Source: a virus
Taxonomy: Duplodnaviria; Heunggongvirae; Uroviricota; Caudoviricetes
Reading direction: 5' to 3' (one strand)
Virus record (IMG/VR): IMGVR_UViG_2576861104_000010
DNA length: 45,889 nucleotides
Of this stretch, positions 3,033-37,352 are shown piece by piece (position 1 is the stretch's first letter; each line of letters begins with the position of its first letter). A program made the position numbers and the translations under genes. The notes under the pieces are model-generated. The model was given only the letters and a program-made list of their open reading frames with translations, was not told the origin of the DNA and made no database searches.

Positions 3033-3066
3033 ATAACTTCGTATAATGTATGCTATACGAAGTTAT
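3033..3066 (+). other. loxP recombination site (34 bp)
   Basis: Exact ATAACTTCGTATA-ATGTATGC-TATACGAAGTTAT: two 13-bp inverted arms around an 8-bp spacer. Confidence 0.97.
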
Positions 3067-3109
3067 TAGGTCTGATGAGGAGTTTACGTCCAGCCGTGTA
3101 GAAAAATCA

Positions 3110-3126
3110 AGAATTATTAGAGCAAT
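3110..3126 (-). promoter_or_regulatory. C1 operator-like site (ImmC region)
   Basis: Reverse complement ATTGCTCTAATAATTCT. Confidence 0.6.
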
Positions 3127-3193
3127 AAAAAATTGAGAGTAAAATCCCACTCCACCAGCCAAATACTGGATTGTTTTTCATAGTCGTTTGGCA

Positions 3194-3210
3194 ATTGCTC
3201 TAATAAATTA
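3194..3210 (+). promoter_or_regulatory. C1 operator (ImmC region, upstream of coi)
   Basis: ATTGCTCTAATAAATTA, one mismatch to consensus. Confidence 0.7.
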
Positions 3211-3448
3211 TAGTTTTGCCGCCGTTTCGTAATACGACTTTGGACTCACTACTTAATGTGTCTTCAGCGTTGTAGAGCGGCTCAGAAGGAAATGAGCAAA
3301 CAGGGAAACCTTATACAACGGCATTACCGCTATGCATTGCTCATCTTACACACAGCGCAATGTTGATAGATAACCCCAGCATGGAACATGGGTGAAACAG
3401 TAGGTCAGAGCTTCAGGCTCTGTGTTGTCAATACAGTGAGGCATAATT

Positions 3449-3658
3449 ATGGCTTTCATTCCACCAACCATCGACGATGTTAGACATTGCTCTAACGCTT
3501 TATCTGTAGACCCCGCCGAAACCGACGCTGCTCGCGCCATTGCTGAACACTACTCAAAGATATCCAATCAGGAGTACCGCATCACCCAAGACGACCTGGA
3601 TGATCTCACTGACACAATCGAATATCTCATGGCCACTAACCAGCCAGACTCACAATAA
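3449..3658 (+). CDS. coi: Coi, C1 inactivator, 69 aa
   Basis: 69-aa ORF directly upstream of c1 in the same orientation, as in the P1 ImmC region. Confidence 0.8.
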   Translation: MAFIPPTIDDVRHCSNALSVDPAETDAARAIAEHYSKISNQEYRITQDDLDDLTDTIEYLMATNQPDSQ

Positions 3659-3768
3659 ATGCACTAATAAATCTATTATTTTCGTTGGATCCTTTTATAA
3701 TGGTGGCCAACAACTCTCAGTGTCATCCGCTGTGAGCTGTTGGCCATGTCAATTCTGGAGGAGGATCA

Positions 3769-4620
3769 ATGATAAATTATGTCTACGGCGAACAACTGTA
3801 CCAGGAGTTCGTCAACTTCAGGGATCTCTTTCTAAAAAAAGCTGTTGCACGCGCCCAACACGTTGATGCCGCCAGCGACGGTCGTCCTGTTCGCCCGGTT
3901 GTCGTTCTGCCGTTCAAAGAAACGGACAGCATTCAGGCTGAAATTGATAAATGGACTTTAATGGCGCGGGAACTGGAACAGTACCCAGACCTCAATATCC
4001 CAAAGACTATTTTATATCCAGTGCCTAACATCCTTCGCGGTGTGCGTAAGGTTACGACTTATCAGACAGAAGCTGTGAACAGCGTCAACATGACCGCTGG
4101 CCGCATTATTCATCTGATTGATAAGGACATTCGCATTCAAAAAAGCGCGGGGATCAATGAGCACAGTGCGAAATACATAGAGAACCTGGAAGCAACAAAA
4201 GAGCTAATGAAGCAGTACCCGGAGGATGAAAAATTCCGTATGCGCGTACACGGCTTTAGCGAAACAATGCTGCGCGTGCATTACATTTCCAGTAGCCCTA
4301 ACTACAATGATGGTAAATCAGTTAGTTACCATGTGCCGCTATGTGGTGTGTTTATCTGCGATGAAACTCTCCGTGATGGAATCATCATCAACGGTGAATT
4401 CGAGAAAGCAAAATTTAGCCTTTATGACTCTATAGAACCGATCATCTGCGACCGCTGGCCGCAGGCAAAAATATATCGCCTGGCAGATATTGAAAATGTA
4501 AAAAAACAAATTGCCATCACTCGCGAAGAGAAAAAGGTCAAATCAGCCGCATCAGTTACGCGCAGCCGTAAAACTAAGAAGGGGCAGCCAGTAAACGACA
4601 ACCCCGAAAGCGCGCAATAG
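3769..4620 (+). CDS. c1: C1 repressor of lysis, 283 aa
   Basis: Protein MINYVYGEQLYQEFVNFRDLFLKKAVARAQHVDAASDGRPVRPVVVLPFKETDSIQAEIDKWTLMARELEQYPDLNIPKTILYPVPNILRGVRKVTTYQTEAVNSVNMTAGRIIHLIDKDIRIQKSAGINEHSAKYIENLEATKELMKQYPEDEKFRMRVHGFSETMLRVHYISSSPNYNDGKSVSYHVPLCGVFICDETLRDGIIINGEFEKAKFSLYDSIEPIICDRWPQAKIYRLADIENVKKQIAITREEKKVKSAASVTRSRKTKKGQPVNDNPESAQ is recognisably P1 C1 (283 aa); many cognate operators are present in the window. Confidence 0.95.
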   Translation: MINYVYGEQLYQEFVNFRDLFLKKAVARAQHVDAASDGRPVRPVVVLPFKETDSIQAEIDKWTLMARELEQYPDLNIPKTILYPVPNILRGVRKVTTYQTEAVNSVNMTAGRIIHLIDKDIRIQKSAGINEHSAKYIENLEATKELMKQYPEDEKFRMRVHGFSETMLRVHYISSSPNYNDGKSVSYHVPLCGVFICDETLRDGIIINGEFEKAKFSLYDSIEPIICDRWPQAKIYRLADIENVKKQIAITREEKKVKSAASVTRSRKTKKGQPVNDNPESAQ

Positions 4621-4644
4621 TTTCTATCCGGCATGGTCAATGAG

Positions 4645-6129
4645 TTATTCATTAAGCCATGCCAGAGCTTCATCAACCTGCGCTTCGTCTTCGACGCTAA
4701 GCACTTCATCCTGGGGAACATAATCCGCCAGCATAGCGAAACAATATGTATCCCAATGGTCTGGTGAGTGCAGGTTGAGTTTTTTCTTCATATCCTCCTT
4801 ACTCATCACCTTCCATTGACCTGCGGAGTTAATCCCTACAGGGATTTTCGACGCTTCCTCAATAGTTTCATTACCCTTATCCAGTCTCATACGACCAGAT
4901 TTTACGGCCTCTGCGGCTTGAACGTTGGCATAAGCACGTTTATCAAAGTACAGGCTCTTATCTTCACGGCTATGCATCTTTTTACCCCAGCGTATACGCT
5001 GTACGGTAATACCATAATACTCGTACATCAGATCCGCCGTTGCTTTACCCAGGCCATCGCCGTCTATCGCTATGGTGATATTTGGGAATCGCTCAGGATT
5101 ACATTCTGCGAAAATTTTGGCGGCAAGCTGCGTTTCTGTAACGTCTGTGTATTCCAGCATTCGATAGTTGATTACACGGCGTTTATTTCGCTGGCCGGAC
5201 ACCATCATGATATTGATAACGGACTTATCCCGTCCCGTACCACCAGCAACGTCCACACATGCAAGCCAGCCCCATCCTTTTGCAATCTTGACTTTCCGCC
5301 GCGTTGCACGTTCAACCTCATCACGTCCAAGAAGGAAGCCATCCTGTGATTTAGGGAATAGGCCGCGTACCTTAATCATGTACATAGGGTTATCACGCCC
5401 GCCGTACTCCGCCAGCTTCATTTTGATAAATGCTGGCGTTACCAGCGGTGATTCCTCACTGTTAAGCGTGATCGCCGTATAAACGCCATCAGGGTTACCA
5501 GGACGCTTGGCCAGTTTATGGTGAGTATCGTAGAAATAGCCGCTTGGGCGTGTAGGCTGTGACAGTAATAAGATGCGGTTATCCTGTCCGGTAAGAGCAC
5601 CGGTGATGATACCGAAAGCTCTATCACTGACACCGGAGGCTTCATCGATAATATACAGAAGATGATCTGCGTGTTCACCGGCGAGAGCTTCTTCACTTCC
5701 CAGACGAAAGCCCTTCGGTACTACAGTCCATACACCTTTACCAGTAACCTCATAGAAAGCGGTTTCTGTCAGAACAAAATAATCAGCAAGCCATGGAAAA
5801 CGGCTGGTGGCAGTAGCCCAGTTTATCTTGATGTACTTGAATATACCGGTCATTACCTGCTGAATTTTGTTCGCAACGATAATGGCGCGGGCACCGGGAT
5901 ACATGATTATGAACAACATGATCATGATAGAAGTCATGTCTGATTTCCCGGTACCGTGACCAGACGAAACAGATGTCTTGCTACCCTGTTCCTGCACAGA
6001 CTCAATAATCAGATCCTGCTGCCAGGTAGGTGTTTTGCCGAACAAAACATCAGCGGCCGCAATCCAGTCATAACGATATAGCGCCACCAGCTCGCGCCAA
6101 CGTGGATCCGTTACGCAACTTCTGGCCAT
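4645..6129 (-). CDS. pacB: PacB, terminase large subunit, 494 aa
   Basis: 494-aa ORF immediately downstream of pacA, size and position as in P1. Confidence 0.85.
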
Positions 6130-7322
6130 TAATCATCATCCCCGTATAGCTTGCGGGTAACTTCTTCGTCTTCCTCCTCGTCTTCGTCCAGGTCTTGTTC
6201 CAGCCATGGGTCGTTTGATACACCTTCAGTATCAACATCTCCATAACCGCCAGTATCAACGATATCGGCGATTTCTTCCCTGCGCTGCTCAATCCACAAT
6301 GCGGCATCGGCGCGGCGGTTGGCGGCCCGTTCTCGCGCAACTTTGTCCAGATCTTCAAGAGAAGGGCCACCGACGGCTGTTTGCCTTTCCTCATCATCGG
6401 TATTGGTCTTAGGAGCACGCAGATCGGCTTTGATTTGCTCCAGCATCAGGGGCGGAACTTTCCCGCCATGCGCCTCGATGAATTCAGCTGCTTCCAGCAC
6501 TGACCAGTTATTTTCACGCTTTCGTTCGTATGCCAGCTTAACAATGCCAGCTTGCCCCATAGACAAAGCGTGCTTTTCCGCCTCCCGGCTTTCTTTTCGA
6601 TAGTTATTCCGGATGCTGTAAATGGTGTTGATCAGGCTGCTTATCTGCGCGGAACAGCTGTTTAGCATGCTCGCGATACGGTATTCAGGCGGAGTACCTT
6701 CATCATCGTCTTTTTGCTGATCGCGCATTTCCTGCACCAGGTGAATACACGTATCCCTGGCATTCTCCAGCATAAGGAGATGAGAAAGAGACTTTTCCAG
6801 AAGAGTGGTTTCCAGAACATCGGCCCCGGACCGACGCAACATAGCGCGCGCGGCCTTCCGCGCTTCAACGTTATCTATCAGGTAATCGCCAGCTTCGAAT
6901 TCAAAGCGTTCACCATCATCATCCAGGGTGTCGCGTTCCAGGCGATCACGTAAGGTACGGTGGGCGCGGGTGATCACGTCATGATCATCAGAACGATCAT
7001 TTATGCGCTTATTTTGGCGCTTAGCGTTCTCGACTGCGGCACTGACAACAGCATTAACTCTTTGTTTTTCAGCCATTTCAGCCACAATGTGATCACCTGC
7101 ACGTTGATCATTAGCGTGATCAATGATCATGCTTTTTAGTGGTTTCCTGACAGGCTTATTTGGCCTACGGCTGTCCGCTGTTCCGGTGTCTTCTTTGAAT
7201 GCACGGAGATAACGACGTGCGGTGTTTGGGTTGAGATTAAACTCGGCGGCATATTGTGCGATGGTGTAACCACCATCTCGCGCCAGGCGAGCAAAATTCT
7301 TTTTGTGATCGTCCCAGGTCAC
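6129..7322 (-). CDS. pacA: PacA, terminase small subunit, 397 aa
   Basis: 397-aa ORF containing two clusters of GATC hexamers typical of the P1 pac site; acidic C-terminus. Confidence 0.85.
6943..7130 (-). other. pac packaging site inside pacA
   Basis: Four hexamers (cGATCAc, tGATCAc, tGATCAt, cGATCAt) at 6943-6996 and four more at 7089-7130, separated by about 95 bp; P1 pac is a Dam-regulated site built of TGATCA/G hexamers. Confidence 0.65.
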
Positions 7323-7359
7323 TTATGCTTCCTTTCGTATAAAACTCTTTTTGACGCGA

Positions 7360-7380
7360 GGGTAACGAAAGTCACATGTC
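7360..7380 (-). promoter_or_regulatory. Candidate Lpa-dependent late promoter for pacA
   Basis: Minus strand reads ACATGTGACTTT-cgt-TACCCT about 40 nt upstream of pacA; the same TGACT-N5-TANNNT arrangement recurs before two other late operons. Confidence 0.4.
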
Positions 7381-7408
7381 AAAAGGCCCGGAACGGGCAA
7401 GCAATCAA

Positions 7409-7861
7409 TCAGATACGTGCGGATGTGGCATTACCGTAATGACGGTGCTGACGGACCACCTTATTGAAAAGTTGACGCGCCATCACCCAAGGCTGGTGCT
7501 CCCGGCGTTCCTTTTCGTCCTGCGTCATATAGAGTTCGTTCTGGAGTTTTTCATCAAACCGGCGCGGAGCGCGGCTGCGGCGAAAGAATTCAGGATTCAG
7601 AGAGTGGATCTGAAATCTACGTGGGCGTGTACTGTCATCAATCAAAACAGACGAATACTTAGACACAGCGATAGCCTTTAAGCGCAGATAAACATCGCGC
7701 TTATCGACATCCAGATGCGGGTATTCCTTTTCAAGAATTGCTGCGAGTTCTTTCGCTGATAGAAGAGATTTAGTGCGGATCATGTAATCCGCAATCTCGT
7801 ACGATGTTATTCGTGAGTGATTTATTTCCATGAAGTGGCGTCCCTGCCAGTTAAGTAACAT
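7409..7861 (-). CDS. lpa: Lpa, late promoter activator, 150 aa
   Basis: 150-aa ORF directly upstream of pacA with a C1 operator upstream; position and size as P1 lpa (gene 10). Confidence 0.7.
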   Translation of the reverse strand: MLLNWQGRHFMEINHSRITSYEIADYMIRTKSLLSAKELAAILEKEYPHLDVDKRDVYLRLKAIAVSKYSSVLIDDSTRPRRFQIHSLNPEFFRRSRAPRRFDEKLQNELYMTQDEKERREHQPWVMARQLFNKVVRQHRHYGNATSARI

Positions 7862-7931
7862 CCTGTCACCTACTGATTAGCCCATGTCAACTAATCAACG
7901 TCGAATATAATACCCTCGATTAAAGAAATAG

Positions 7932-7948
7932 CAATACATTAGAGCAAT
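7932..7948 (-). promoter_or_regulatory. C1 operator-like site upstream of lpa
   Basis: Reverse complement ATTGCTCTAATGTATTG. Confidence 0.55.
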
Positions 7949-7949
7949 T

Positions 7950-8993
7950 TTATCTAACAATCGACGAATGACTTGTGATAGCGCCGACTCCAAGCGCGTA
8001 ATCAAAGAACAATCGTTGATGCATCGCCAGCCTACCGTGCGTCTTCTCCCAATTATCGCGGTCACGCTCAATATCACGCTGGCATGACTGGCACAGAGGA
8101 ATAGCATAAATGTCATGCGCGCATAATCGACTATGACGAACGATATAAGGCGTAATGTGAGCGCCAGCTCCCGCAGCTCCACAGCCACAGCATGGACGGG
8201 AAGCCACAAAATCCATGTACTCGGGCAATTTTAGCGATTGAAGTTTTGGTATCTTGAAATGCGCCATACCTGGGTCGGAGTCAACATCCACAGGGCATAC
8301 TTTTGCACGCATCGGCGCGGCGCGTTCTTCCATCATCTGAACATATGCTGTAGCGCGATCGTCATACGGGCGAATATCCGCCTCTTTCAGAGGTCCGCTA
8401 TCCTGCGGAGTAGCCTTCATCTTATTTATTGATATGCGGCAAACTTCTTCCGGCATCAGGTGCATCATGTTGCGCATGAAAGCCCACCAGCACAGTTCCT
8501 GAATACTTAAATCATGGCCATCTGAAAGCCCCATTTCCTGACGGGCGACATCCAGTATCCAGTTAACGCGATTATTATGCAGCGTTTCTTTCAGCTCATT
8601 AAAACCACGCATCCGGTAATGGTTATCGTGATGCCAGCACAACAACACCGCGCTATTGTCTCGTTCTGCGTGGACAATATGGTTGTCACACCAGCTACGA
8701 TCTGCGGCCTGGCATTGCCCCTCTTTCCTGCGCAACCACGCCACCAGCGAGTCAATTCCACCAATACGGCGAAACAGTTCATCGCTGTTAAAAAACGGCT
8801 GCAACGCCTCATTTGTTGCCATAGTTTGCTCGGAAACAACGAGGCCGTCGTCCATGTGCTCGATTAACTCACGTGGCACCGGCTCCATAATAAATTTACG
8901 GCCAGCCTCCACCAGCTTTCTGACCTCCTGATCCACTTTGAACGTGGCGAGGCCAAGTTCTTTCTGTACAAAGGGAGTAATTACGGCTTTCAC
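7950..8993 (-). CDS. Hypothetical post-doc protein (pdc-like by position), 347 aa, with a Cys/His-rich C-terminal segment
   Basis: ORF between the doc-side small gene and lpa; C-terminal [12 protein letters not shown]...[18 protein letters not shown] could be a zinc-binding or HNH-like module; function not assignable. Confidence 0.5.
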
Positions 8994-9020
8994 ATCACAC
9001 CTTTAATCACTGATTGGGCT

Positions 9021-9200
9021 TTATATGCTGCCCGGCATTCTCTGTTTAAGCACAACCATTTCCTGACGGCATAACACAGCAATAGCGGTCCTGGCACCAA
9101 TTTGCTTACCAGCCAGGTATTGCTTTACCTCGCGGCGACTCACGCCATCAAGAAGCATCTTTAACGCTTCACGGGACAATTTGTTGTATTTACGTGCCAT
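9021..9200 (-). CDS. Small basic post-doc protein, 59 aa from Met at 9200
   Basis: GGAG ribosome-binding site then ATG 4 nt after the doc stop; helix-turn-helix-like composition. Confidence 0.4.
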   Translation of the reverse strand: MARKYNKLSREALKMLLDGVSRREVKQYLAGKQIGARTAIAVLCRQEMVVLKQRMPGSI

Positions 9201-9204
9201 TAAT

Positions 9205-9585
9205 CTACTCCGCAGAACCATACAATCTACGTAACGTGTCGGCGACAGAAGATACAGATATCTCTCCGGTCGCAGCCCCTACGGTAAGGTCTGCCAGTTC
9301 AGGTGAATCAAATACCTGCACCCCGTTACGGCGTAGAAATAACAGCGCACTGTTTAGCGCGGTACGCTTATTGGCATCATTGAATATATGCCCTCTCGCT
9401 GTAGCCACCAGGTAGGTGGCGGAGACTTCGAAAAGGTCGGTGATCTCTTCGTAGGCAACTCTGGCCTGAACTCTCCCGATAATGGCCTCTGCCCTACCCG
9501 GATCTGACATGCCCGGCAGGCCGCCGTAGCGGTTTATATTCGCATCATGAAGCGCAATAAGTTCTTCCGGTGATATATGCCTCAT
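9205..9585 (-). CDS. doc: Doc toxin (Fic-fold kinase), 126 aa
   Basis: Protein [25 protein letters not shown]...[23 protein letters not shown] is recognisably P1 Doc; translationally coupled to phd. Confidence 0.95.
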
Positions 9586-9806
9586 TATCGGTTAACCAGT
9601 TCCTTGTTGGTGGAGTCCAGGGTGTCAAACAGGGATGCAAATTCAGCATCCAGCGCCGCTTTTTTGTAGGCTTCGAAAGTAGCCTTGCTGACAATTACTG
9701 CTGGCTCACGGCCTCTGCGGGTGATTTCAACCTCTTCCCCGGCCTCAACATTGTTGAGCACTTCAGAAAGGTTGCCGCGCGCGGTACGGAAGTTAATGGA
9801 TTGCAT
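9585..9806 (-). CDS. phd: Phd antitoxin, 73 aa
   Basis: [73 protein letters not shown] from the Met at 9806; stop overlaps the doc start. Confidence 0.95.
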
Positions 9807-9813
9807 AAACACC

Positions 9814-9839
9814 TCGTGTACTCGTTATGTGTACACAAT
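9814..9839 (-). promoter_or_regulatory. phd/doc operator palindromes
   Basis: GTGTAC and GTGTACAC palindromic repeats immediately upstream of the phd start, as expected for Phd/Doc autoregulation. Confidence 0.5.
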
Positions 9840-9982
9840 TATAAACTTCACAGGCATAAAGCACCAGCACTTTGCGGCTTAACAAACCTCTAGGCAGGTC
9901 ATTCGTAGCCTAATGTCCGAACTGCTAAAGCATCCAAGTTGCTGTAGAATCACATCCAATTACATAAGCCTGAAATAAGTGG

Positions 9983-11545
9983 ATGAAAATGACAAGTATT
10001 CAACAACGTGCAGAGCTTCATCGTCAAATCTGGCAAATTGCTAACGATGTCAGGGGTTCGGTCGATGGATGGGATTTTAAGCAATACGTTCTGGGCGCAC
10101 TTTTCTACCGTTTTATCAGCGAAAATTTTTCCAGCTATATTGAAGCCGGTGATGACAGTATCTGTTATGCGAAACTGGATGACAGCGTAATTACTGATGA
10201 CATTAAAGACGATGCCATCAAAACCAAAGGCTACTTCATCTACCCAAGTCAGCTTTTCTGCAACGTAGCTGCGAAAGCAAATACTAATGACAGACTGAAT
10301 GCAGATTTAAACAGCATCTTCGTTGCTATCGAAAGTTCTGCTTACGGTTACCCTTCAGAAGCTGACATCAAAGGTTTGTTTGCTGATTTCGATACCACCA
10401 GTAACCGCCTGGGTAACACCGTTAAGGATAAAAATACCCGCCTGGCCGCGGTTCTGAAAGGGGTTGAAGGATTAAAACTTGGCGACTTCAACGAACATCA
10501 GATTGACCTGTTCGGCGATGCCTATGAGTTCCTGATTTCTAACTATGCGGCGAATGCCGGTAAGTCCGGCGGCGAGTTCTTTACACCGCAGCACGTCTCT
10601 AAGCTGATTGCACAACTGGCAATGCACGGCCAGACCCACGTTAACAAAATCTACGACCCGGCAGCAGGTTCCGGTTCGCTGTTATTGCAGGCTAAAAAGC
10701 AGTTTGATGACCACATCATCGAAGAAGGTTTTTTTGGTCAGGAGATCAACCATACGACCTATAACCTGGCGCGTATGAACATGTTTTTGCACAACATCAA
10801 CTACGACAAGTTTGATATCAAGCTGGGCAATACGCTGACTGAGCCGCACTTCAGAGATGAAAAACCGTTTGATGCCATCGTTTCTAACCCGCCGTATTCG
10901 GTGAAATGGATTGGCAGCGATGACCCGACGCTGATTAACGATGAACGTTTTGCCCCGGCTGGCGTTCTGGCCCCCAAATCCAAAGCTGACTTTGCGTTTG
11001 TATTACATGCGCTGAACTATCTTTCTGCCAAAGGTCGTGCTGCGATTGTCTGCTTCCCGGGCATTTTTTACCGTGGCGGCGCGGAGCAGAAAATCCGTCA
11101 GTATCTGGTTGACAATAACTATGTCGAAACCGTGATTTCACTCGCACCGAACCTGTTCTTTGGCACCACCATTGCCGTAAATATTCTGGTGCTGTCTAAA
11201 CATAAAACGGATACCAAAGTTCAGTTTATTGATGCCAGCGAACTGTTCAAAAAAGAGACTAACAACAACATTCTGACCGATGCCCATATCGAAAAAATTA
11301 TGCAGGTATTTTCCAGCAAAGAAGATGTTGCCCATCTGGCAAAATCTGTCGCGTTTGAGGCCGTTGTCGCGAATGACTATAACCTGTCAGTGAGCAGCTA
11401 TGTAGAAGTGAAAGATAACCGCGAAACTATCGATATTGCTGAGCTAAATGCTGAGCTGAAAACCACGGTCAGCAAAATCGACCAGTTGCGTAAAGATATT
11501 GATGCGATTGTGGCTGAAATTGAAGGCTGCGAGGTGCAGAAATGA
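9983..11545 (+). CDS. hsdM: Type I R-M methyltransferase subunit HsdM, 520 aa
   Basis: N6-adenine methyltransferase NPPY motif (IVSNPPYS), AdoMet-binding ([10 protein letters not shown]); 520 aa as in EcoR124-type HsdM; stop overlaps the hsdS start. Confidence 0.9.
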
Positions 11546-12771
11546 GCGAGTTGAGTTATCTGGAAAAATTGCTGGATGGGGTTGAGGTTGAGTGGGTACC
11601 TGTATCAGAACTATTTCAAATTAAAAATGGGTATACACCTTCAAAATCCAAGAAAGAATTTTGGGAGAATGGAACCATTCCATGGTTCAGACTAGAAGAT
11701 GTCAGAGTCAATGGTAGGGAATTAAATGATTCTATCCAACACATAAATCCATTAGGAGTTAAAGGTTGTCTGTTCCCGAAAAACTCTATTTTCATGTCTA
11801 CAACAGCTACCATTGGGGAGTATGCTTTAGTAAGGGTCCCTTATTTAACAAATCAACAAATCACAAACTTTTCCATTTCTGAAAAATTCAGTGAAGCGGT
11901 CAATATAAAATATATTTTTTATAGGTTTTATGATTTCGGCAAGTGGTGTACGGAGAATGCTAATAAAAGTGGTGGAGTATCTATAATTGGACTCAAAAAA
12001 CTGTCTCAATATCAGTTCCCAATCCCTTGCCCGGATAATCCGGAAAAATCCCTTGCCATCCAGTCTGAAATCGTTCGGATTCTGGATAAATTTACTGCAC
12101 TTACCGCTGAGCTTACCGCTGAGCTTAACATGCGTAAAAAACAGTACAACTACTATCGTGACCAGTTGTTGAGGTTTAAAGAGGGTGAGGTTGAGTGGAA
12201 GGCATTGGATGATGTTTTTGACATTGTTGCAGGCGGCGATGCACCAAAAGATGCCTTATCCGAATTTGAGACCGAGGAATTCAGCATCCCCGTTTTATCA
12301 AACGGTATAGGTAATAAATCACTATATGGATGGACTGACAGAGCCAAGATTGAGAAACCGAGTCTCACCATATCTGCAAGAGGTACTATTGGATGGACTA
12401 GCTATAGAAGTAGACCATTCTTTCCGATAGTGCGACTGCTGGTCTTGACGCCAAAAATTAAATTAAACTTGAAGTACGCTTATTACTTCATGAAAACCAT
12501 TGAGAATAATTACAAAATCCCTGAGGCAGGCATACCCCAGCTAACTAAACCGATGCTCAAAGACATTAAAATCCCCTTCCCATGCCCCGGTAATCCGGAG
12601 GAATCTTATAACGAACAAGCCAGAATCGCAGCGACTCTCGACAAATTTGACGTCTTAACAAATTCGATTACCGAAGGTCTTCCGCGTGAAATCGAGTTGC
12701 GCCAGAAACAATACGAGTACTATCGTGATTTACTGTTCAGTTTCCCAAAACCCAAAACTGTCAGTAATTAA
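11542..12771 (+). CDS. hsdS: Type I R-M specificity subunit HsdS, 409 aa
   Basis: Two target-recognition domains separated by a conserved central region ([24 protein letters not shown]) with a matching C-terminal repeat ([18 protein letters not shown]); ATGA overlap with hsdM. Confidence 0.85.
12103..12126 (+). repeat. Two tandem copies of a 12-bp repeat (ACCGCTGAGCTT) in the hsdS central conserved region
   Basis: Read directly; encodes TAEL-TAEL. In EcoR124I versus EcoR124II the copy number of this repeat sets the spacer length of the recognition site. Confidence 0.8.
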
Positions 12772-12892
12772 TTGACCATTGCTACAGACCGGCTCACCTT
12801 AACATCCGGTCAGTATATAGACTATTTTTTACACGCCGGAAGTCACTCTTAACTCCCTTCCGGCCCTTGCCAGACGGCACAAAGGATGCGCT

Positions 12893-15800
12893 ATGACTCA
12901 TCAGACACACACCATTGCTGAATCCAATAACTTTATCGTTCTTGATAAGTACATCAAAGCTGAGCAAACAGGCGACAGCTATCAGAGCGAATCGGACCTG
13001 GAACGTGAACTGATTCAGGACCTACAAAATCAGGGCTATGAATTTATAGCCGTAAAATCTCAGTCAGCGATGCTGGCCAATGCTCGGGAACAGCTTCAGA
13101 GCCTCAATGGTGTGGTGTTTAATGACAGCGAGTGGCGGCGTTTCACGGAGCAGTATCTGGACAACCCGAGCGATGGCATTCTGGATAAGACCCGTAAAAT
13201 CCATATCGACTATATCTGCGACTTTATTTTTGACGACGGGCGTCTTGAGAACATCTATCTGATCGATAAAAAGAATCTCATGCGCAACAAAGTGCAGATT
13301 ATCCAGCAGTTTGAACAGGCAGGTTCTCACGCTAACCGTTATGACGTAACTATCCTGGTTAATGGCTTGCCGCTGGTGCAAATCGAACTGAAAAAACGCG
13401 GCGTGGCGATTCGTGAAGCGTTCAACCAGATACACCGTTACAGCAAAGAGAGTTTTAACAGCGAAAATTCTCTGTTTAAGTATCTGCAACTGTTTGTCAT
13501 TTCCAACGGTACCGATACCCGTTATTTTGCCAACACAACAAAGCGCGATAAAAACAGTTTTGACTTCACCATGAACTGGGCGAAATCAGACAACACGCTG
13601 ATTAAAGACCTCAAAGATTTTACCGCTACCTTTTTCCAGAAACATACTCTGCTGAATGTTCTGGTGAACTACAGCGTGTTTGACAGTAGTCAGACGCTAC
13701 TGGTGATGCGACCGTACCAGATTGCAGCTACCGAACGAATTTTATGGAAAATCAACAGCTCCTATAAAGCGAAAAACTGGTCTAACCCCGAAAGCGGTGG
13801 CTTTATCTGGCACACCACTGGTTCCGGTAAAACACTGACCAGCTTTAAAGCCGCGCGTCTGGCAACAGAACTGGACTTTATTGATAAAGTCTTCTTCGTG
13901 GTCGACAGGAAAGACCTCGATTACCAGACCATGAAGGAATATCAGCGTTTTTCGCCAGATAGTGTTAACGGCTCGGAAAATACAGCAGGTCTTAAACGAA
14001 ATCTGGATAAGGACGATAACAAAATTATCGTCACCACTATTCAGAAACTTAATAACCTGATGAAAGCAGAAAGCGACCTGCCTGTATACAATCAGCAAGT
14101 GGTGTTTATATTTGATGAATGCCACCGCAGCCAGTTTGGAGAAGCGCAGAAAAACCTGAAGAAGAAATTCAAACGCTATTATCAGTTTGGTTTTACCGGC
14201 ACACCTATTTTCCCGGAAAACGCCTTAGGCTCAGAAACGACCGCCAGCGTATTTGGTCGTGAATTGCATTCGTATGTAATTACCGATGCGATTCGTGATG
14301 AAAAAGTGCTCAAATTCAAGGTGGACTACAACGATGTGCGGCCACAGTTTAAGTCTTTAGAGACAGAAACTGACGAGAAAAAACTGAGTGCGGCTGAAAA
14401 TCAGCAGGCGTTTCTTCATCCCATGCGTATTCAGGAAATCACGCAATATATTCTGAATAACTTCCGCCAGAAAACCCACCGTACCTTCCCTGGCTCAAAA
14501 GGTTTTAATGCTATGTTGGCAGTGAGCAGCGTGGATGCTGCAAAAGCCTATTACGCGACGTTTAAACGGTTACAAGAGGAAGCAGCTAATAAATCGGCCA
14601 CCTATAAACCGCTGCATATTGCGACAATCTTCTCCTTTGCTGCCAATGAAGAACAAAATGCCATTGGTGAAATTTCCGATGAAACTTTTGATACCAGCGC
14701 AATGGACAGCAGTGCTAAAGAGTTTCTTGATGCTGCAATTCGTGAGTATAACAGCTATTTTAAAACTAACTTCAGCACCGACAGTAACGGTTTTCAGAAC
14801 TACTATCGTGATTTAGCCCAACGGGTTAAAAATCAGGATATCGATCTGTTAATTGTCGTGGGGATGTTTTTAACTGGCTTCGATGCTCCAACATTGAACA
14901 CGCTATTCGTCGATAAAAACCTGCGTTTTCACGGCCTGATGCAGGCATTTTCCCGCACCAACCGTATTTATGATGCAACTAAAACCTTCGGTAATATCGT
15001 CACTTTCCGGGATCTGGAACGCTCAACTATTGATGCCATAACGCTGTTTGGTGACAAAAACACCAAAAATGTGGTTTTAGAAAAGAGTTATGCAGAGTAT
15101 ATGGAAGGCTTTACTGATGCTGCCACTGGTGAAGCTAAGCGCGGCTTTATGGCAGTAGTTTCAGAACTGGAACAACGGTTCCCTGACCCTGCCAGTATTG
15201 AAAGTGAAAAAGAGAAGAAAGACTTCGTTAAACTGTTTGGTGAATACCTGCGTGCCGAGAACATCCTGCAAAACTATGATGAATTTGCCACGCTGAAAGC
15301 CCTGCAACAAATCGATCTTAGCGATCCTGTTGCGGTAGAAAAATTCAAAGAAGAACATTATGTGGATGATGAAAAGTTCGCTGAATTGCAAACGATTCGT
15401 CTCCCTGCTGAACGCAAGATTCAGGATTATCGTTCTGCCTATAACGATATTCGTGACTGGCTGCGCCGTGAGAAAGAAGCTGAGAAAAAAGAGAAATCAA
15501 CCACTGACTGGGATGACGTAGTTTTTGAGGTCGATTTGCTGAAGTCTCAGGAAATAAACCTGGATTATATCCTTGGACTGATTTTCGAACACAACAGACA
15601 AAATAAAGGCAAGGGCGAAATGATCGAAGAGGTCAAACGCTTAATTCGTTCAAGCCTGGGGAACCGTGCTAAAGAGGGCCTGGTGGTCGATTTTATTCAG
15701 CAAACGAACCTGGATGATTTACCGGACAAAGCCAGCATCATTGACGCATTCTTTACGTTTGCTCAACGCGAACAGCAACGTGAAGCAGAAGCATTGATAA

Positions 15801-16009
15801 AAGAAGAAAATCTCAATGAAGAGGCAGCAAAACGTTATATTCGCACGTCTTTAAAACGCGAATACGCCACCGAAAATGGCACAGAATTAAACGAAACATT
15901 ACCAAAACTTAGTCCGTTGAATCCGCAATATAAAACGAAAAAACAGGCAGTTTTCCAGAAAATAGTCTCGTTTATTGAGAAGTTTAAAGGCGTAGGCGGA
16001 AAAATATAG
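12893..16009 (+). CDS. hsdR: Type I restriction endonuclease subunit HsdR, 1038 aa
   Basis: Helicase motifs (TTGSGKT Walker A, DECHRS motif II) and 1038-aa size typical of type IC HsdR; separate promoter region after hsdS. Confidence 0.9.
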
Positions 16010-16087
16010 CCTAATTCGTGTTTTTCTTGCGGGTTCTTAATTAAACCCGCATGAGACCGTGGGGTTCCAAATGGCTAATATACTCCC

Positions 16088-16174
16088 TTACCCATGCGCG
16101 ACGATGCCGCCAAAAGTGATAGAGAACAGCCAGAAATAGATCGCGGCCATAATGATTTTGAATGCCGTGTTCAT
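16088..16174 (-). CDS. Candidate small hydrophobic peptide, 28 aa (MNTAFKIIMAAIYFWLFSITFGGIVAHG)
   Basis: ATG preceded by AGGAG; overlaps a plus-strand GATTGATTGGAT motif and a hairpin plus T-run; below the ORF-track size cutoff. Could be a type I toxin-like peptide or chance. Confidence 0.3.
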   Translation of the reverse strand: MNTAFKIIMAAIYFWLFSITFGGIVAHG

Positions 16175-16256
16175 ATTTTCAGCTCCTGTGATTGATTGGA
16201 TACATGCCGCGCCTTGCGGCATGTTTTTATTTTCACTTTCTCTGCTTTAAAAAGCA

Positions 16257-16273
16257 AGATTTATTAGAGCAAT
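16257..16273 (-). promoter_or_regulatory. C1 operator-like site at the 3' end of the HAD gene
   Basis: Reverse complement ATTGCTCTAATAAATCT, one mismatch to consensus. Confidence 0.6.
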
Positions 16274-16779
16274 TATTGTTGATGAAGAAGCGCATTTTCG
16301 TACTCTCTGACCATTAACGTAAGCACGCCGTGATGCCTGAAAACACGCGCTACTTCAATCTTATCTTCCAGCGCGAACGCAATTTTACTTAGACCAATTT
16401 TCTTAAGGAGATCAATCTTTGCTGGACCATCATTTCTGTCATCGGTGGCAGGACGCATAGATAGCAAAGGCTCAGCCCCGTTTGTTACGTGCTTACGCAA
16501 CCAGGCTCGTGTTTTATCCCTGGCTATCTCACAGCGCCCGGTTACAAACCAGAGCGTGTAAATGCAGGACAACTGGCGCACCATATCAATAACTGGAGTT
16601 ATGGGTGTATCGGTGTCACAGGCGAGATTAAACTCGTTCCAGTCCTTTGTTAATGCACCTTTGCCTGGTGGCGGAAGCAAATGCAGCCTGTCTTCAGTTG
16701 CTTCTGATATTGTTCCATCAATATCGACTACGACGATGTACGGACGTTCCAGGTGTGCCTGTTTGTTGAAAATACTCAA
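16273..16779 (-). CDS. HAD-superfamily phosphatase-like protein, 168 aa
   Basis: Motif I VVVDIDGT (DxDGT), motif II-like WFVTGR, acidic motif ATDDRNDG; small HAD phosphatase fold, substrate unknown. Confidence 0.6.
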   Translation of the reverse strand: MSIFNKQAHLERPYIVVVDIDGTISEATEDRLHLLPPPGKGALTKDWNEFNLACDTDTPITPVIDMVRQLSCIYTLWFVTGRCEIARDKTRAWLRKHVTNGAEPLLSMRPATDDRNDGPAKIDLLKKIGLSKIAFALEDKIEVARVFRHHGVLTLMVREYENALLHQQ

Positions 16780-16851
16780 ATGCCCTCCTCATTGGACGAA
16801 AAAAATGCTGGTGGGTGCACTCCACCAGCATTAAAAGTGACACTGTAACTA

Positions 16852-18114
16852 TCAGCGAACGTAAATAGTACCGCCGTTCTCTTTTTCCCATGCATCGCTA
16901 CGTGCATAGCAAACATCGAGAAGTCTTCTTGCCGCTGTTTCCTCTAAACCCAATTCGACAACCAACTGCTCATGACGGCGGGTAACCACATCAAACAGGG
17001 TATGCAGCCCTTTAGCTGCCAGATCATCAATAAATTCCGGTTCGAACGGCAGCTCTGCCTCTGCCAACATAACCTCTTGCGCCCACTCAACTCGACGGAC
17101 CAGTTCCGGGCGGCGGCTTTCCATCTCTTTACAGATCAATTCATGGAAGAACTCTACCCAACCTTCCGGCTGGAACTCGCGGAAAATGGCCAACGGCTGG
17201 AAGTTTGGCATCAACCATTCGTTGATACGGATATCAATGGCATAGCCCATGTCGCAGCAGAACTGATAAGCAAAGTCCAGCTTAGAAACGATATAAGGAC
17301 GCTCGTTATTGAACTCTTTAGGCGATGAGATCCCATAAGCCAGGAGGCGCGGGAAGAATGAGATTTGCCCTAACGTCGGATGAAGTTTGCTTGCAGGGAA
17401 ATGGCGCTCAGTAATGCCATACATTTCCTTCTTGAGCGTCGCAAATTTGGCATTCTCATTAACCAGCGCGGTAACCTCTGCTTTTTTATTAGCAAATGCC
17501 ACGCGCGCTTCGCTTGCATCTTTAATAGTTTTTTTGAGCTGTTGGTTAAGGTCGGCGACCTGTTTACGCAGTTCCTGCCGCTCGCTTTTAGCTTTGTTAT
17601 AGCGTTTCTCAAGGTTAAAAGGATCAAGTTTCATGATCTCTTTATATTGAGATTTTAGCGTTGAAATCTGTGAGTTCCGCAGTTCAACCATCGCGGTCAT
17701 TTCATTGAGTTTTGTTTCCAGCTCAATGCTTATACGTTCGGCATTATCAGCACGCTGGTTGGCGTCATGCGTCGCATCGTCGATCGCGTCCTGTTGCTGG
17801 CGTTTCAAATGTTCAATTTGCAGCTGAAGCTCTTCAATTTCTTTACCCTTCAGACCGAGATCCAACTGCATATTTTCAGCTGCATCTACCAGGGAGTTAT
17901 GGCTATCAGCTTCTGCGTTATAAACATCAATAAGCTGTGCGTGAAGCATCTCCGCTGACTGAACCGCATTATCAAAAAAACGTGCTGTGAGGTCATCACA
18001 ACTAACGCGGCGTTGCGCGGCCCGGATGTTCTGGATAATGGCCGGGATACCGGCATTCAGGACATCAGGGATAGATACATTTTCGATTGATTGGTTTTGT
18101 GCTGAAGTGCTCAT
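16852..18114 (-). CDS. Hypothetical protein with long N-terminal coiled coil and uncharacterised C-terminal domain, 420 aa
   Basis: Heptad-rich, charged residues about 60-230; no Walker or other catalytic motifs seen; first gene product after a C1-operator pair. Confidence 0.55.
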   Translation of the reverse strand: MSTSAQNQSIENVSIPDVLNAGIPAIIQNIRAAQRRVSCDDLTARFFDNAVQSAEMLHAQLIDVYNAEADSHNSLVDAAENMQLDLGLKGKEIEELQLQIEHLKRQQQDAIDDATHDANQRADNAERISIELETKLNEMTAMVELRNSQISTLKSQYKEIMKLDPFNLEKRYNKAKSERQELRKQVADLNQQLKKTIKDASEARVAFANKKAEVTALVNENAKFATLKKEMYGITERHFPASKLHPTLGQISFFPRLLAYGISSPKEFNNERPYIVSKLDFAYQFCCDMGYAIDIRINEWLMPNFQPLAIFREFQPEGWVEFFHELICKEMESRRPELVRRVEWAQEVMLAEAELPFEPEFIDDLAAKGLHTLFDVVTRRHEQLVVELGLEETAARRLLDVCYARSDAWEKENGGTIYVR

Positions 18115-18115
18115 T

Positions 18116-18334
18116 TCAAAGTTCCGTATTAGCTTGTGCTTCGGTCATTTTTCCTAAGTATGAAGGTGGAAGGACTACGCAATTTGTATCCAGTCCCTCA
18201 CCTATGGCAGCCTGTAAAATTCTGGCTAAGGTGAGTCTCTTGTTGCGATACCTGGTGATGACATGCCTGATACCGCCGGTCGGCGTAACAAAGGCGATCA
18301 GCCAGTAGTGATATTTCCGTCGGAATGGCCACAT
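18116..18334 (-). CDS. Small hypothetical protein, 72 aa
   Basis: ORF immediately downstream of the C1-operator pair; stop abuts the start of the 420-aa gene. Confidence 0.4.
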   Translation of the reverse strand: MWPFRRKYHYWLIAFVTPTGGIRHVITRYRNKRLTLARILQAAIGEGLDTNCVVLPPSYLGKMTEAQANTEL

Positions 18335-18348
18335 AGTGCACCCTGTAG

Positions 18349-18365
18349 ATTGCTCTAATAAAAAA
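18349..18365 (+). promoter_or_regulatory. C1 operator (left of a facing pair)
   Basis: ATTGCTCTAATAAAAAA. Confidence 0.65.
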
Positions 18366-18397
18366 CTTGATGAGTGTACATCACGTTTTAAAAATAT

Positions 18398-18414
18398 GGA
18401 ATTATTAGAGCAAT
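18398..18414 (-). promoter_or_regulatory. C1 operator (right of a facing pair)
   Basis: Reverse complement ATTGCTCTAATAATTCC; with 18349-18365 it forms an inverted pair about 50 bp apart around a promoter-like AT-rich core. Confidence 0.65.
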
Positions 18415-18415
18415 A

Positions 18416-19117
18416 TTATTCTGATGCTTGCTCAAAAAATGAGCTGATAAGGGGAAGCCAATCCTCTGACACTTCGCGAGGTCGCGGTTTGCCGTGGAAA
18501 AAGATTATTCGGCAGTCTTTTGGTAATGCCCCATTCCCCCTGGAGTAACGCGCGCTCGCATATTTTGAACCAGGTTCCACAACATCGGCCTTGTAACTTA
18601 CAAACCATCCTGGATACAGATCCTGAAATGCTGGTGTATCATCGCCCATAACCTTTCGTAAGAACCCCTGGTCACCCCAGCACTCAGTAGTGACACAACG
18701 AGAAATCCAACCTTCCGGATCTTGCCAGAATGAACTCCAGATATGCGCTTTAACACTATTTGGTATCCACAGGGCACCGCTGCCACGATATTGTGGATGG
18801 TAAAAATCCCTAAGCATGGTGAAGCTGGTTGGTGGATGCTCTAGGATTGGGCGTATATCACCAGCAATAACCGTGTCCAAATCCAGATAGAACAGATCAT
18901 CGGTTATATCCGGTCGGAACAACTCGATTTTCGCCCACCAGCCACGGCACTTTTGCCACTGGTTGATCAATGGGACAACTTTGACGCCAGGTACATGTAA
19001 ACGCTTCAGGTCTGTCAGGCAAATAATTTCATAGCCTTTTGGCAGTTGATTAACCAGCCACTGCACATCGGAAGCGTTATAGTCACCACCAGAGCGAAAA
19101 ACTAAAGCAATCTTCAT
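18416..19117 (-). CDS. Hypothetical protein, possibly a GT-A-like glycosyltransferase, 233 aa
   Basis: Hydrophobic stretch then DLD (FYLDLDTV), resembling a DxD nucleotide-sugar-binding motif; assignment is weak. Confidence 0.45.
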
Positions 19118-19806
19118 GCTGCACCATCACCTTTCACTTTCATCAATGTCAGGTTTCCGCAAAATACGGCACCAGTGTCGATATACTGCTGATTCCAGAA
19201 TGTCTTCGGGCTTTTCACCGGAGTGTGACCAAAGATAAAACGATCTGCGCCCGAAATTTCGCCACCAATATCATCCATCGAATCACTGATACGCTCGCGC
19301 GCCCAGACAACGTTGAAAAGCGGCACCTCCTTACCGAATTGGTATTCATTATCCGGATAGTCGGCATGGGCTATAACGATAGTTTCTTGCCCGGTGTTCA
19401 ACTCAATGATATAGGGCAGACGCTTTACCAGCTCCACCAGCGCCCAGGCTAATATTTCCTGATCAGTGTCCAGCATGAAGAACCATTGTCCGCCATTCAT
19501 TAGCCAGTTATTCACGTTGCCATCTGGACTTAACGCATCAATCATCAGCCGCTCATGGTTCCCCATCACTGCCCTGAACCAGGGCATCTGCAATAGTTCC
19601 AGACATTCGACATTTTCAGTACCGCGATCGATAAGGTCGCCGACCGATATCAGTAAATCCTGCGCCGGGTCAAAATCCACACGATGGAGTTCGGACATCA
19701 GTCTGGTGTAGCAACCATGCAGATCACCAACAACCCAGACATTCCTGTATTTGGTACCGTCGATACGGTGATAAATTGTGGGTGCCATCATGTATTCTTC
19801 AGCCAT
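19114..19806 (-). CDS. ppp: Ser/Thr protein phosphatase (lambda-phosphatase-like metallophosphoesterase), 230 aa
   Basis: Motifs GDLHG, GDLIDRG, GNHE; P1 carries a homologous ppp gene. Confidence 0.8.
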
Positions 19807-20414
19807 TCTTTAAGAGTCATCTGCGGAATACCTCCCATTTTCCCGCATGAAACAACGTCAATCTGTTCACGCGCAGACTGGAATAACAAAGGCAGGTGAC
19901 TTAGATTTTTTGGCGTGCCGCCGGAGTGAACGCGTAGTTCTTGCGTAGCGTCAACGCCCACCAGAGCTACATGTTTGAATCCGATATGGAAAGCCAGGTT
20001 CAGAGCACCATATGCACTATTGCCGCTGGCAATTTCATTCTCATCTTCGCAAAGGCCGAAATGTGCGGACCAGCGCCACGCCCACCACTCGGGAGAATTC
20101 GTATTTTTTGGCTCCATGCCGCGTTCAGCCACACGACGGAAGCACAGAACGCCATCTCTGACTTCACGTTCTTTAACATCGGGTAGTGCCATGCAATAAC
20201 AAACACCACGGCGACGGCGGCCACGACCAACGCGCCGCATATTGTCTGGGGATGGATCAAGGGTGAAAAAATAAGAAGCGCGGTTAAGCCAGTCGATGGC
20301 CCCATTGACCGCTATAATCGGCACTCCGCGCGGCGCAACAAAGTTTGCGGCGCTTGGGCCACTGCCGACGATAATAACGCGATCACTGCCTCTAAATTTA
20401 TTCTTGGGAAACAT
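19788..20414 (-). CDS. Rossmann-like protein with GSGPS motif (DUF115/MptE/Maf-like), 208 aa
   Basis: N-terminal [13 protein letters not shown]; paralogous to the upstream gene; its start overlaps that gene's 3' end by about 100 bp in another frame. Confidence 0.5.
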
Positions 20415-31559: not shown

Positions 31560-33450
31560 CAAAAACGTCATGAGCTACACCTCGAGTGTCCCCCTTACAA
31601 GACACAGAACGTCTGGCAAAAAGAGGTTCCACTCTGAAGCCACTGTCATGATAAAGCTCTCTGATGTTTGGCGCGCCACTGTTAGTAATGAGAACCACGG
31701 CAGCCTGGCGGCTGCAAATTGAAAACCGCCCCGGTTCGTCCTGTTGTTGCCGCACGCCCCGCAGAATATGTATGCTCTGAGGACCTGTTTTATTAAGGAC
31801 TCATCCCCTTATGTTGACCCGCAAAAGTATCGATACAGTTCTGCTCTCTGTTGGTGCTGAGAAGCTCTCACAACGAGAATGGGACTGGATGAAAATGCTC
31901 AAACCCATGGACCCACCACCTGCGATGGTGACGACCTCCATCCTGAAGCGCCGTGGCGATACAGCAGCCCTTACCCTGCTACAGGATACCGGGGTTTAAT
32001 CCATCCTCATGTTGTCCGGTTTTACTCCCCGCCCTCTGAAACGTCTGTTCACAGCCAACCAGTGCTGGACGTCCTTCCTGGATGCGGGCGGTCTGCGCGA
32101 TATCGAGGTTGAAGCCGTCACCAAAATGCTGGCCTGCGGCACACGGATACTGGGTGTAAAAGAGTTCGGGTGTGATAACCCGGACTGTCAGCACGTAAAG
32201 TACCTGACCAACTCATGCGGCAGCCGTGCCTGCCCGTCCTGCGGAAAGAAGGCCACAGACCTGTGGACAGCAACACAGCTGAATCGTCTTCCTGACTGCG
32301 ACTGGGTACATCTGGTCTTCACCCTGCCGGACACGCTGTGGCCGGTGTTCGAAAGCAACCGCTGGCTGCTGAATGACGTGTGCCGTCTGGCGGTGGAGAA
32401 TCTGCTGTATGCCGCCCGAAAACGGGGGCTGGAACCCGGTATCTTCTGCGCCATCCACACGTATGGCCGTCGTCTCAACTGGCATCCGCATGTACATGTG
32501 TCTGTAACCTGTGGAGGTCTGAATAAGCATGGTCAGTGGAAAAAGCTGAGCTTCCTGAAAGACGCGATGCGTTCACGGTGGATGTGGAATATGCGGCAGC
32601 TGCTTCTGAAAGCGTGGTCAGAGGGGATGGCAATGCCGGAGTCGTTGTCACATATCACGACGGAATCACAGTGGAGAAGCCTGGTGCTGAAATCCGGCGG
32701 AAAATACTGGCATGTGTACATGTCGAAGAAGACAGCCGGAGGGCGGAATACGGCACGCTACCTGGGTCGTTATCTGAAGAAGCCACCAATAGCGGCTTCC
32801 CGACTGGCTCATTACAACGGAGGGGCAAGCCTGAGCTTCCGTTACCTGGACCACAAAACGGGAGAAACGGCGACGGAAACGCTGACACAGCGTGAGCTGG
32901 TCGCGAGGCTGAAACAGCACATCCCGGAGAAGTTTTTTAAGATGGTGAGGTACTTCGGGTTCCTTGCCAACCGTGTGTGTGGAGAGAAGCTGCCGCAGGT
33001 GTACCGTGCACTGGGGATGGATAAACCGGAACCAGTGGCGAAAGTGTGCTATGCACAAATGGTGAAACAGTTCCTGAGTCGTGACCCGTTCGAATGCGTG
33101 CTGTGTGGCTGCCGGATGGTATACCGCCGGGCCATTGCGGGGCTGAATGTATCAGGGCTGAAGAAAAACGCGCGGGATATCAGTCTACTGAGGTATATGC
33201 CGGCCTGACACAGGCTAAGTGTGCCCGGGAATCGGTGAAAGTATAAAAAACAGCCTGTTACGGTATAAAAATCGACCATACAGAGAGGGAAACCACCGGA
33301 GTGGTGGGAAAAGCAGAAAGGCTCACGTGGCATAAGGCGTGGACAATGGTATCGACTGGTTTTTCAATTTCCTATACGTGAACATGGTCTTCTCATCGAA
33401 AGCATAGAATAATACAGCGTCCTTCCAACCGGCTTTGTTGGCCGGTTTTT
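31560..33450 (+). mobile_element. IS91-family insertion sequence (boundaries approximate)
   Basis: Contains one HUH-Y2 transposase gene and interrupts the phage sequence between a C1 operator and the oriR DnaA boxes; ends not determined. Confidence 0.5.
32009..33208 (+). CDS. tnpA: IS91-family rolling-circle transposase (HUH, two-tyrosine), 399 aa
   Basis: N-terminal zinc-binding Cys cluster (CDNPDCQH...SCGSRACPSCG), HUH motif HPHVHV, and YLGRY two-tyrosine motif. Confidence 0.8.
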   Translation: MLSGFTPRPLKRLFTANQCWTSFLDAGGLRDIEVEAVTKMLACGTRILGVKEFGCDNPDCQHVKYLTNSCGSRACPSCGKKATDLWTATQLNRLPDCDWVHLVFTLPDTLWPVFESNRWLLNDVCRLAVENLLYAARKRGLEPGIFCAIHTYGRRLNWHPHVHVSVTCGGLNKHGQWKKLSFLKDAMRSRWMWNMRQLLLKAWSEGMAMPESLSHITTESQWRSLVLKSGGKYWHVYMSKKTAGGRNTARYLGRYLKKPPIAASRLAHYNGGASLSFRYLDHKTGETATETLTQRELVARLKQHIPEKFFKMVRYFGFLANRVCGEKLPQVYRALGMDKPEPVAKVCYAQMVKQFLSRDPFECVLCGCRMVYRRAIAGLNVSGLKKNARDISLLRYMPA

Positions 33451-33453
33451 CAC

Positions 33454-33674
33454 TTATCCACATTATCCACTGGATAGATCCAATAATTAGGTCCATACAG
33501 ATCCCAATTAGATCCATATAGATCCCTGATCGTTGCAGGCCGCGCCACGTCTGGCCTAGAAGTGTATCGCGATGTGTGCTGGCGGGAAAACGATGTGTGC
33601 TGGCGGGATAAAAATGTGTGCTGACGGGTTGCTAATGTGTGCTGGCGGGATATAGGATGTGTGCTGACGGGAAA
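33454..33674 (+). promoter_or_regulatory. P1-type plasmid origin oriR: tandem DnaA boxes, GATC heptamers, five RepA iterons (incC)
   Basis: TTATCCACA and TTATCCACT at 33454-33471; AGATCCA-type GATC repeats at 33476-33532; five 19-bp iterons GATGTGTGCTGGCGGGAAA-like at 33571-33674, directly upstream of repA. Confidence 0.8.
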
Positions 33675-33730
33675 GCCTGGGTAGTTATCATCACTTATAA
33701 AAACTATCTACATAATTCGGAAAAAGTAAT

Positions 33731-34591: not shown

Positions 34592-34592
34592 G

Positions 34593-34875
34593 TGTGTGCT
34601 GGAGGGAAGCTGCATTAAAAAAATGTGTGCTGCCGGGAAGGCTTGTCCAATTTCCTGTTTTTGATGTGCGCTGGAGGGGGACGCCCCGCAGTTTGCCCAG
34701 ACTTTCCCTCCAGCACACATCTGTCCATCCGTTTTTCCCTCCAGTGCACATGTAATTCTCTGCCTTTCCCTCCAGCACACATATTTGATACCAGCGATCC
34801 CTCCACAGCACATAATTCAATGCGACTTCCCTCTCTCGCACATTCTGGTCCTGCATCATCCCTCCAGCACACATC
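34593..34875 (+). repeat. incA copy-control iteron array (about nine 19-bp RepA sites in both orientations)
   Basis: Repeated GTGTGCTGGAGGGAA and its reverse complement TTCCCTCCAGCACACA directly downstream of repA. Confidence 0.8.
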
Positions 34876-34984
34876 TAATAGCCTCATCGCCATTTCTTTA
34901 CGTGCAATAATTGACGCACGAATCAAAAAAAGTTGCACGTAGCAGAATCAAACGTACAATTCACTCATACGAAATGATAAGGAG

Positions 34985-37300: not shown

Positions 37301-37352
37301 CCCCCCTCCCCCGCACAAAAAATTTAAAAAATTACTTTTAGCGAGAAAGTCA

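Follow-up and report, generated by a model that had tools for sequence, protein, structure and literature searches.

The full 45,889-nucleotide sequence of the IMG/VR virus record IMGVR_UViG_2576861104_000010 (the window) belongs to a P1-like phage-plasmid and carries the genes hsdM, hsdS, and hsdR of a type I restriction-modification (R-M) system beside the phd/doc addiction module. We consider this very probably to be a functional type IC (EcoR124-family) system of an Escherichia coli P1-like phage-plasmid, in the layout of most natural P1-like elements. The integrity of the genes, their family membership, their position, and their distribution are directly established. The hsd system, its family, and its place beside phd/doc are already known and common, and the discovery value is small, since all three are documented; the corrective point concerns the laboratory P1 reference, whose layout at this locus turns out to be the rare one.

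The family assignment is carried by HsdM and HsdR. In a search against Protein Data Bank sequences, HsdR residues 1 to 1038 align without gaps to EcoR124I HsdR (2w00_A, 2262 bits) and HsdM residues 1 to 520 to EcoR124II M (7bst_D, 1151 bits), each subunit being about 98% identical to EcoR124I/II over its full length, which agrees with the type IC family that a first-pass annotation of the window had proposed from protein sizes and operon layout. HsdS resembles EcoR124 HsdS (7bst_A) in the N-terminal, central, and C-terminal conserved regions only, and the target recognition domains (TRDs) do not match. Its central conserved region is identical to that of EcoR124I, including the sequence TAELTAEL (residues 188 to 195), which holds two copies of TAEL, at residues 188 and 192. 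The HsdM and HsdR similarity, the gene order hsdM-hsdS-hsdR, the HsdS conserved regions with their TAEL repeats, and the catalytic residues all place the system in the type IC family. Type I families are defined by the interchangeability of their subunits in vivo (PMC12707154), and because of the 98% identity the subunits are very likely interchangeable with those of other type IC members. Compared with EcoR124I and EcoR124II, encoded on plasmids R124 and R124/3, the window system shares the gene order, the lengths of HsdM (520 amino acids [aa]) and HsdR (1038 aa), and the two TAEL repeats of EcoR124I, whereas both TRDs differ and the system resides on a P1-like phage-plasmid instead of a conjugative one.

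All three genes appear on the plus strand in the open reading frame (ORF) list, each with one terminal stop (Table 1). The 4-bp overlap of hsdM and hsdS is ATGA, and a gap of 121 bp between hsdS and hsdR sets hsdR apart from the hsdMS unit. The complete gene set with its coordinates and sizes and the hsdM-hsdS overlap, as first annotated, were all confirmed, the separate hsdR promoter being a consensus match only. PADLOC agrees with the Pfam and NCBIfam assignments. Besides the HsdM motifs listed in Table 1, the HsdR motifs D151/E165/K167, QIHRY (QxxxY), GSGKT, and DECH are present. An inactivating mutation in hsdR or hsdM, which the first-pass annotation had named as a finding that would speak against it, was looked for in the hsd genes of the window, and none was found. 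The genes hsdM and phd are divergent, with 176 bp between their start codons, in line with the opposite strands and close spacing described before. The phd gene lies directly upstream of doc and overlaps it, as in P1, which identifies the pair as the addiction module, and the left breakpoint of P1 homology is found about 17 bp beyond the -35 element of Pphd. A canonical terminator right after hsdR was considered and rejected, as the hairpin found there has no T-run and the first good terminator lies at 16202 to 16224, in the P1 flank. The Rfam and tRNA scans of the region gave no matches.

Table 1. Features of the doc-to-pap region, with positions in the window
Feature	Position	Strand	Evidence or remark
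hsdM, N6-methyladenine (m6A) methyltransferase subunit (520 aa)	9983..11545	+	TIGR00497, E = 1e-195; alignment to EcoR124II M (7bst_D); motifs DPAAGSG and NPPY
hsdS, specificity subunit (409 aa)	11542..12771	+	PF01420, E = 6e-48, two Methylase_S halves
HsdS domains	TRD1 about 11596-12016; TRD2 about 12211-12610	+	Boundaries from alignments
hsdS-hsdR intergenic region	12772..12892	+	Promoter-like TTAACA-18-TATTTT at 12799-12828; consensus scan, pattern match only
hsdR, translocase/endonuclease subunit (1038 aa)	12893..16009	+	TIGR00348, E = 3e-227; PF12008 (EcoR124_C), E = 6e-73; alignment to 2w00_A
Non-P1 segment, left end (100 bp 5' of hsdM)	9883..9982	+	P1 homology ends at 9882; putative site of an hsdM-hsdS promoter divergent from Pphd
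Non-P1 segment, right tail	16010..16084	+	GCGGGTT...AACCCGC hairpin at 16030-16051, no T-run; homologous to P1 and P7 again from 16085 on
doc, toxin of the P1 addiction module (126 aa)	9205..9585	-	TIGR01550, E = 5.6e-39; PF02661; in a block 97.6% identical to P1
phd, antitoxin (73 aa, as in P1)	9585..9806	-	TIGR01552; PF02604; longer in the ORF list, up to a GTG at 9812
Pphd promoter region	9829..9866	-	-10 element TATAAT at 9838-9843; GTGTACAC palindrome at 9829-9836; putative function, from P1 via alignment
Unannotated hydrophobic ORF of 28 aa (MNTAFKIIMAAIYFWLFSITFGGIVAHG)	16088..16174	-	AGGAG ribosome-binding site; peptide identical in P1, belongs to the P1 flank
Intrinsic-terminator-like hairpin and T-run	16202..16234	+ (hsdR strand)	Inside the P1-homologous flank
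C1 repressor operator (P1 Op88/OpmgT)	16257..16273	-	One mismatch to the consensus; PpmgT promoters point at the hsdR 3' end
pap, gene of the right P1 flank	16273..16779	-	PF25109; P1 annotation

By synteny and identity, the window is a P1-like phage-plasmid (Punavirus). It is collinear with P1 (NC_005856) over positions 3050 to 9882, 16085 to 31696, and 33379 to 42777 at 89 to 99% identity, the values for the three long collinear blocks being 93.5%, 99.1%, and 98.8%. The genes ref and cre are found at 414 to 2614, and the C1 operator consensus has 12 matches in the window, compared with 0.23 expected. Relative to reference P1, the segment at 9883 to 16084 takes the place of pmgT-humD, so that the P1 map given in the first-pass annotation was right. 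The comparison with P1 and P7 that it had proposed shows three different contents for the interval, pmgT-humD in P1, a third cargo in P7, and hsdMSR in the window, where the right breakpoint of P7 is exactly that of the window. Neither flanking direct or inverted repeats nor an adjacent transposase was found at the cassette ends. Eight regions are listed as variable among P1-like phage-plasmids, and the pmgT-humD interval is one of them (PMC9603915); the phage-plasmid papers, including this one, do not otherwise discuss the hsd locus, and pmgT, pmgU, and pmgV go unmentioned in the P1 knockout paper. The P1 laboratory isolate OP279344.1 (36047-37830) passes from pap and a shortened pmgT directly to phd and has no pmgU-humD, suggesting that the interval is dispensable for the phage.

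The arrangement found in the window is widespread. When only matches covering 80% or more of the query in one place are counted, 505 of 5,426 complete E. coli genomes have the window layout (doc-hsdMSR-pap) and 20 the P1-reference layout (doc-humD...pmgT-pap), while the core gene pmgS is found in 660 and the 501-bp phd-hsdM junction in 653. Most natural P1-like elements of E. coli therefore have the hsd layout, with reference P1 as the exception. The same layout is found on 218 PLSDB plasmids, again at no less than 80% coverage, and also in two sequenced phages. The natural P1-like phage-plasmids vB_EcoM-673R5, phi456, and p50579417_1 have the same genes from doc to pap, 96 to 97% identical outside hsdS; in vB_EcoM-673R5, in contrast, TRD1 differs, giving no alignment over window positions 11596 to 12016, and p50579417_1 has an HsdS of 418 aa compared with 409 aa in the window. 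Chromosomal type IC loci near lptF/lptG are 95 to 97% identical in their coding sequence, with similarity confined to the stretch between the hsdM start and the hsdR stop, and have the same TRD1 (allele P0029) or the same TRD2 (allele P0048), but they lack the P1 flanks and phd/doc and have another upstream region, the homology beginning only at 9986. In some of these chromosomal loci, hsdM is disrupted or split.

Outside the P1-like elements, the IncF plasmid NZ_CP135692.1 (7802-15309) carries a truncated pdcB, followed by pdcA, doc, phd, hsdMSR, and an 83-bp piece of the right P1 flank, the whole being bounded by insertion sequence (IS) elements. The truncated pdcB, the remnant of the right flank, and the IS boundaries make this module look as if it was exported from a P1-like genome to a conjugative plasmid. 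The first-pass annotation had described phd/doc and hsdMSR as a defense and stabilization island, a reasonable view that is somewhat strengthened by the movement of the module as a unit into the IncF plasmid, the functional coupling of the two parts being putative.

Tyndall et al. (1997, Mol Microbiol 23:729) reportedly described P1 DNA as flanking the hsd loci of type IC systems. That article is cited in PMC12707154 and PMC2853133. Loci of this kind (EcoDXXI and EcoR124/3) resemble the window in having phd/doc and its promoter 5' of hsdM and pap-pmgT intergenic DNA 3' of hsdR, but their flanks are short fragments, whereas the flanks in the window run into a whole P1-like genome. The GenBank record of P1 marks positions 87969 to 88647 (doc, phd, and Pphd) as 98% identical to DNA upstream of the EcoDXXI hsd genes and positions 84263 to 84482 as 96 to 98% identical to DNA downstream of hsdR in EcoDXXI and R124/3. 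Both annotated P1 intervals end at the breakpoints found in the window.

The HsdS protein is identical to a public allele (P0001) found on 24 contigs, of which the 7 contexts displayed all match that of the window. Over positions 3542 to 20771 (17.2 kb), the window is 100% identical to JAEOJZ010000055.1, a draft contig of E. coli, and the assembly GCA_019365755.1 is one example of a strain that carries the exact element. An alignment of the whole hsdS gene in one place was found neither among the complete E. coli genomes nor among the PLSDB plasmids. Both TRDs could be extracted for 93 alleles from the 120 best homologues, a list that is biased towards alleles sharing a domain with the query. 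With the window's own allele counted, 33 of these 93 alleles have a TRD1, and 50 a TRD2, that matches the window's at 98% identity or more, and the shared domains have other partners. TRD1 is rare on plasmids, with only 2 PLSDB records matching at 98%, and occurs in chromosomal loci. The window allele thus appears to be a product of the ordinary, classical shuffling by which type I specificity genes exchange domains, each TRD recurring in many type IC alleles, some of them chromosomal. Because both TRDs differ from those of EcoR124I, the EcoR124I target GAA(N6)RTCG would not be shared, and the window system is, judged by its recognition domains, a type IC system with another specificity. The length of the central region of type IC HsdS proteins is tied to the adenine spacing (PMC12707154 Table 1), and the two TAEL repeats predict, by analogy, the spacing class of EcoR124I, with methylated adenines 7 bp apart and typically an N6 spacer. 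TRD2 is 100% identical to that of allele P0048, to which one submitter gave the name "EcoprrI subunit S." We considered RTGC as a target half-site on the basis of this label and rejected it, because two TAEL repeats are present in P0048, whereas EcoprrI has four extra residues (PMC12707154 Table 1), because prrC is absent from the P0048 locus, and because the label is based on homology only.

Some observations weigh against a functional system. HsdR departs from EcoR124 at about 22 positions and HsdM at 8, and these substitutions may matter for function. The hsdM promoter was not detected by a consensus scan, and it would have to sit in the 100 bp between the end of P1 homology and hsdM. Predicting the target from the recognition domains, as the first-pass annotation had advised, was attempted, and the half-sites could not be assigned from TRD identity. 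The HsdR substitutions would also fit a system that modifies without restricting, in which the methyltransferase serves as an epigenetic marker and HsdR is inactive or unexpressed in the prophage state. The convergence of the C1-controlled PpmgT promoters on hsdR points in the same direction, as does the record of vB_EcoM-673R5, where the hsdM and hsdR annotations are fragmented, though possibly through sequencing error. However, the nuclease and motor motifs and the full-length reading frame of hsdR are intact, and hsdR is intact at 1038 aa in every contig examined, so we regard modification alone as unlikely and favor a system that both modifies and restricts.

The history of the cassette can be read in different ways. 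The first-pass annotation implied a recent, unusual cargo particular to this element, in agreement with the absence of the cassette from reference P1 and P7 and with its slightly lower G+C content (0.40 to 0.47). Set against this are the genome counts given above, the documentation of the arrangement since 1997, and boundaries without flanking repeats or a transposase, and a recent and particular acquisition is hardly credible. The annotated cargo replacement at a variable locus holds insofar as hsdMSR sits where P1 has pmgT...humD, an interval known to vary, and it is not noteworthy, the hsd layout being that of the majority; the counts come close to making the arrangement the ancestral core layout, which the first-pass annotation itself had named as an outcome that would speak against its view. 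A further idea is that the phd/doc-hsd module arose on conjugative plasmids such as R124 and pDXX1, where the founders of the type IC family were found, and was later acquired by P1-like elements, and the presence of the module on IncF plasmids could be taken to support it. The IncF example described above looks, by its truncated pdcB and its short right P1 flank between IS elements, like a P1-derived fragment and not the reverse, which makes an origin on conjugative plasmids quite improbable.

We infer the expression, activity, and target sequence of the window system by analogy with the near-identical, biochemically characterized EcoR124I. According to this model, hsdM and hsdS would be translated from one transcript and their products would form an M2S methyltransferase, which would methylate adenines on both strands of a bipartite target and so protect the host and the element. 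With HsdR, translated from a separate transcript, this complex would become R2M2S, which on an unmethylated target would translocate DNA at the expense of ATP and cut at a distance. The lysogen would thus restrict incoming unmodified phage and plasmid DNA, while phd/doc would kill cells that lose the plasmid, stabilizing it independently of the restriction system. A naive cell can acquire a type IC system safely, as the assembly of the complex passes through a cleavage-incompetent R1 intermediate (PMC12707154), and this form of control would suit an element that lysogenizes new hosts.

The right flank offers a possible link to the lysogenic state. P1-like elements that bear hsd have retained the C1 operator and the C1-repressed PpmgT promoters, which there face the 3' end of hsdR. 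The 28-aa ORF is the first downstream of the C1-controlled PpmgT promoters, and the cargo boundary common to P1, P7, and the hsd variants is found 3 nucleotides past its stop codon. Loss of C1 upon prophage induction might yield antisense transcripts from PpmgT, running through this ORF and across hsdR, and thereby couple restriction to lysogeny. Such antisense control of hsdR is conceivable but improbable, and unlikely to matter; if true, it would tie restriction activity to the lysogenic state.

Other parts of the window also depart from P1. Positions 31697 to 33378 have no match in P1 and contain an IS91-family transposase gene at 32009 to 33208 (Y2_Tnp and Zn_Tnp_IS91; G+C content of 0.57) where P1 has uhr-hrdC-dmt-upfB-ppfA, so that the P1 Dmt methyltransferase appears to be absent within the window. 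Positions 42778 to 45889, in the rlfA/rlfB/pmgF variable region, are likewise non-P1 and include a 356-aa ORF of low G+C content (0.35) at 42964 to 44034, which has no Pfam or PADLOC match, and a DDE transposase gene at 44426 to 45544. PADLOC found no defense match to pdcB or pap, and its matches to pmgS were weak and of the coiled-coil type. In the close relative NZ_CP033882.1, which also bears hsd genes, a RelA/SpoT-domain gene adjoins ref where P1 has res/mod (14148-15275; 1-72). This relative also has an "anti-phage dGTPase," indicating that other defense cargo varies among P1-like elements.

The laboratory P1 reference represents a rare layout, and in about three of every four natural P1-like elements of E. 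coli the locus holds a type IC system in place of pmgT-humD. P1-like phage-plasmids look like a main vehicle of the type IC family, and they appear to swap recognition domains with chromosomal loci and to pass the phd/doc-hsd module on to IncF plasmids. These points bear on any work in which P1-like elements are used or tracked, as in transduction, the spread of resistance genes, and barriers to transformation.

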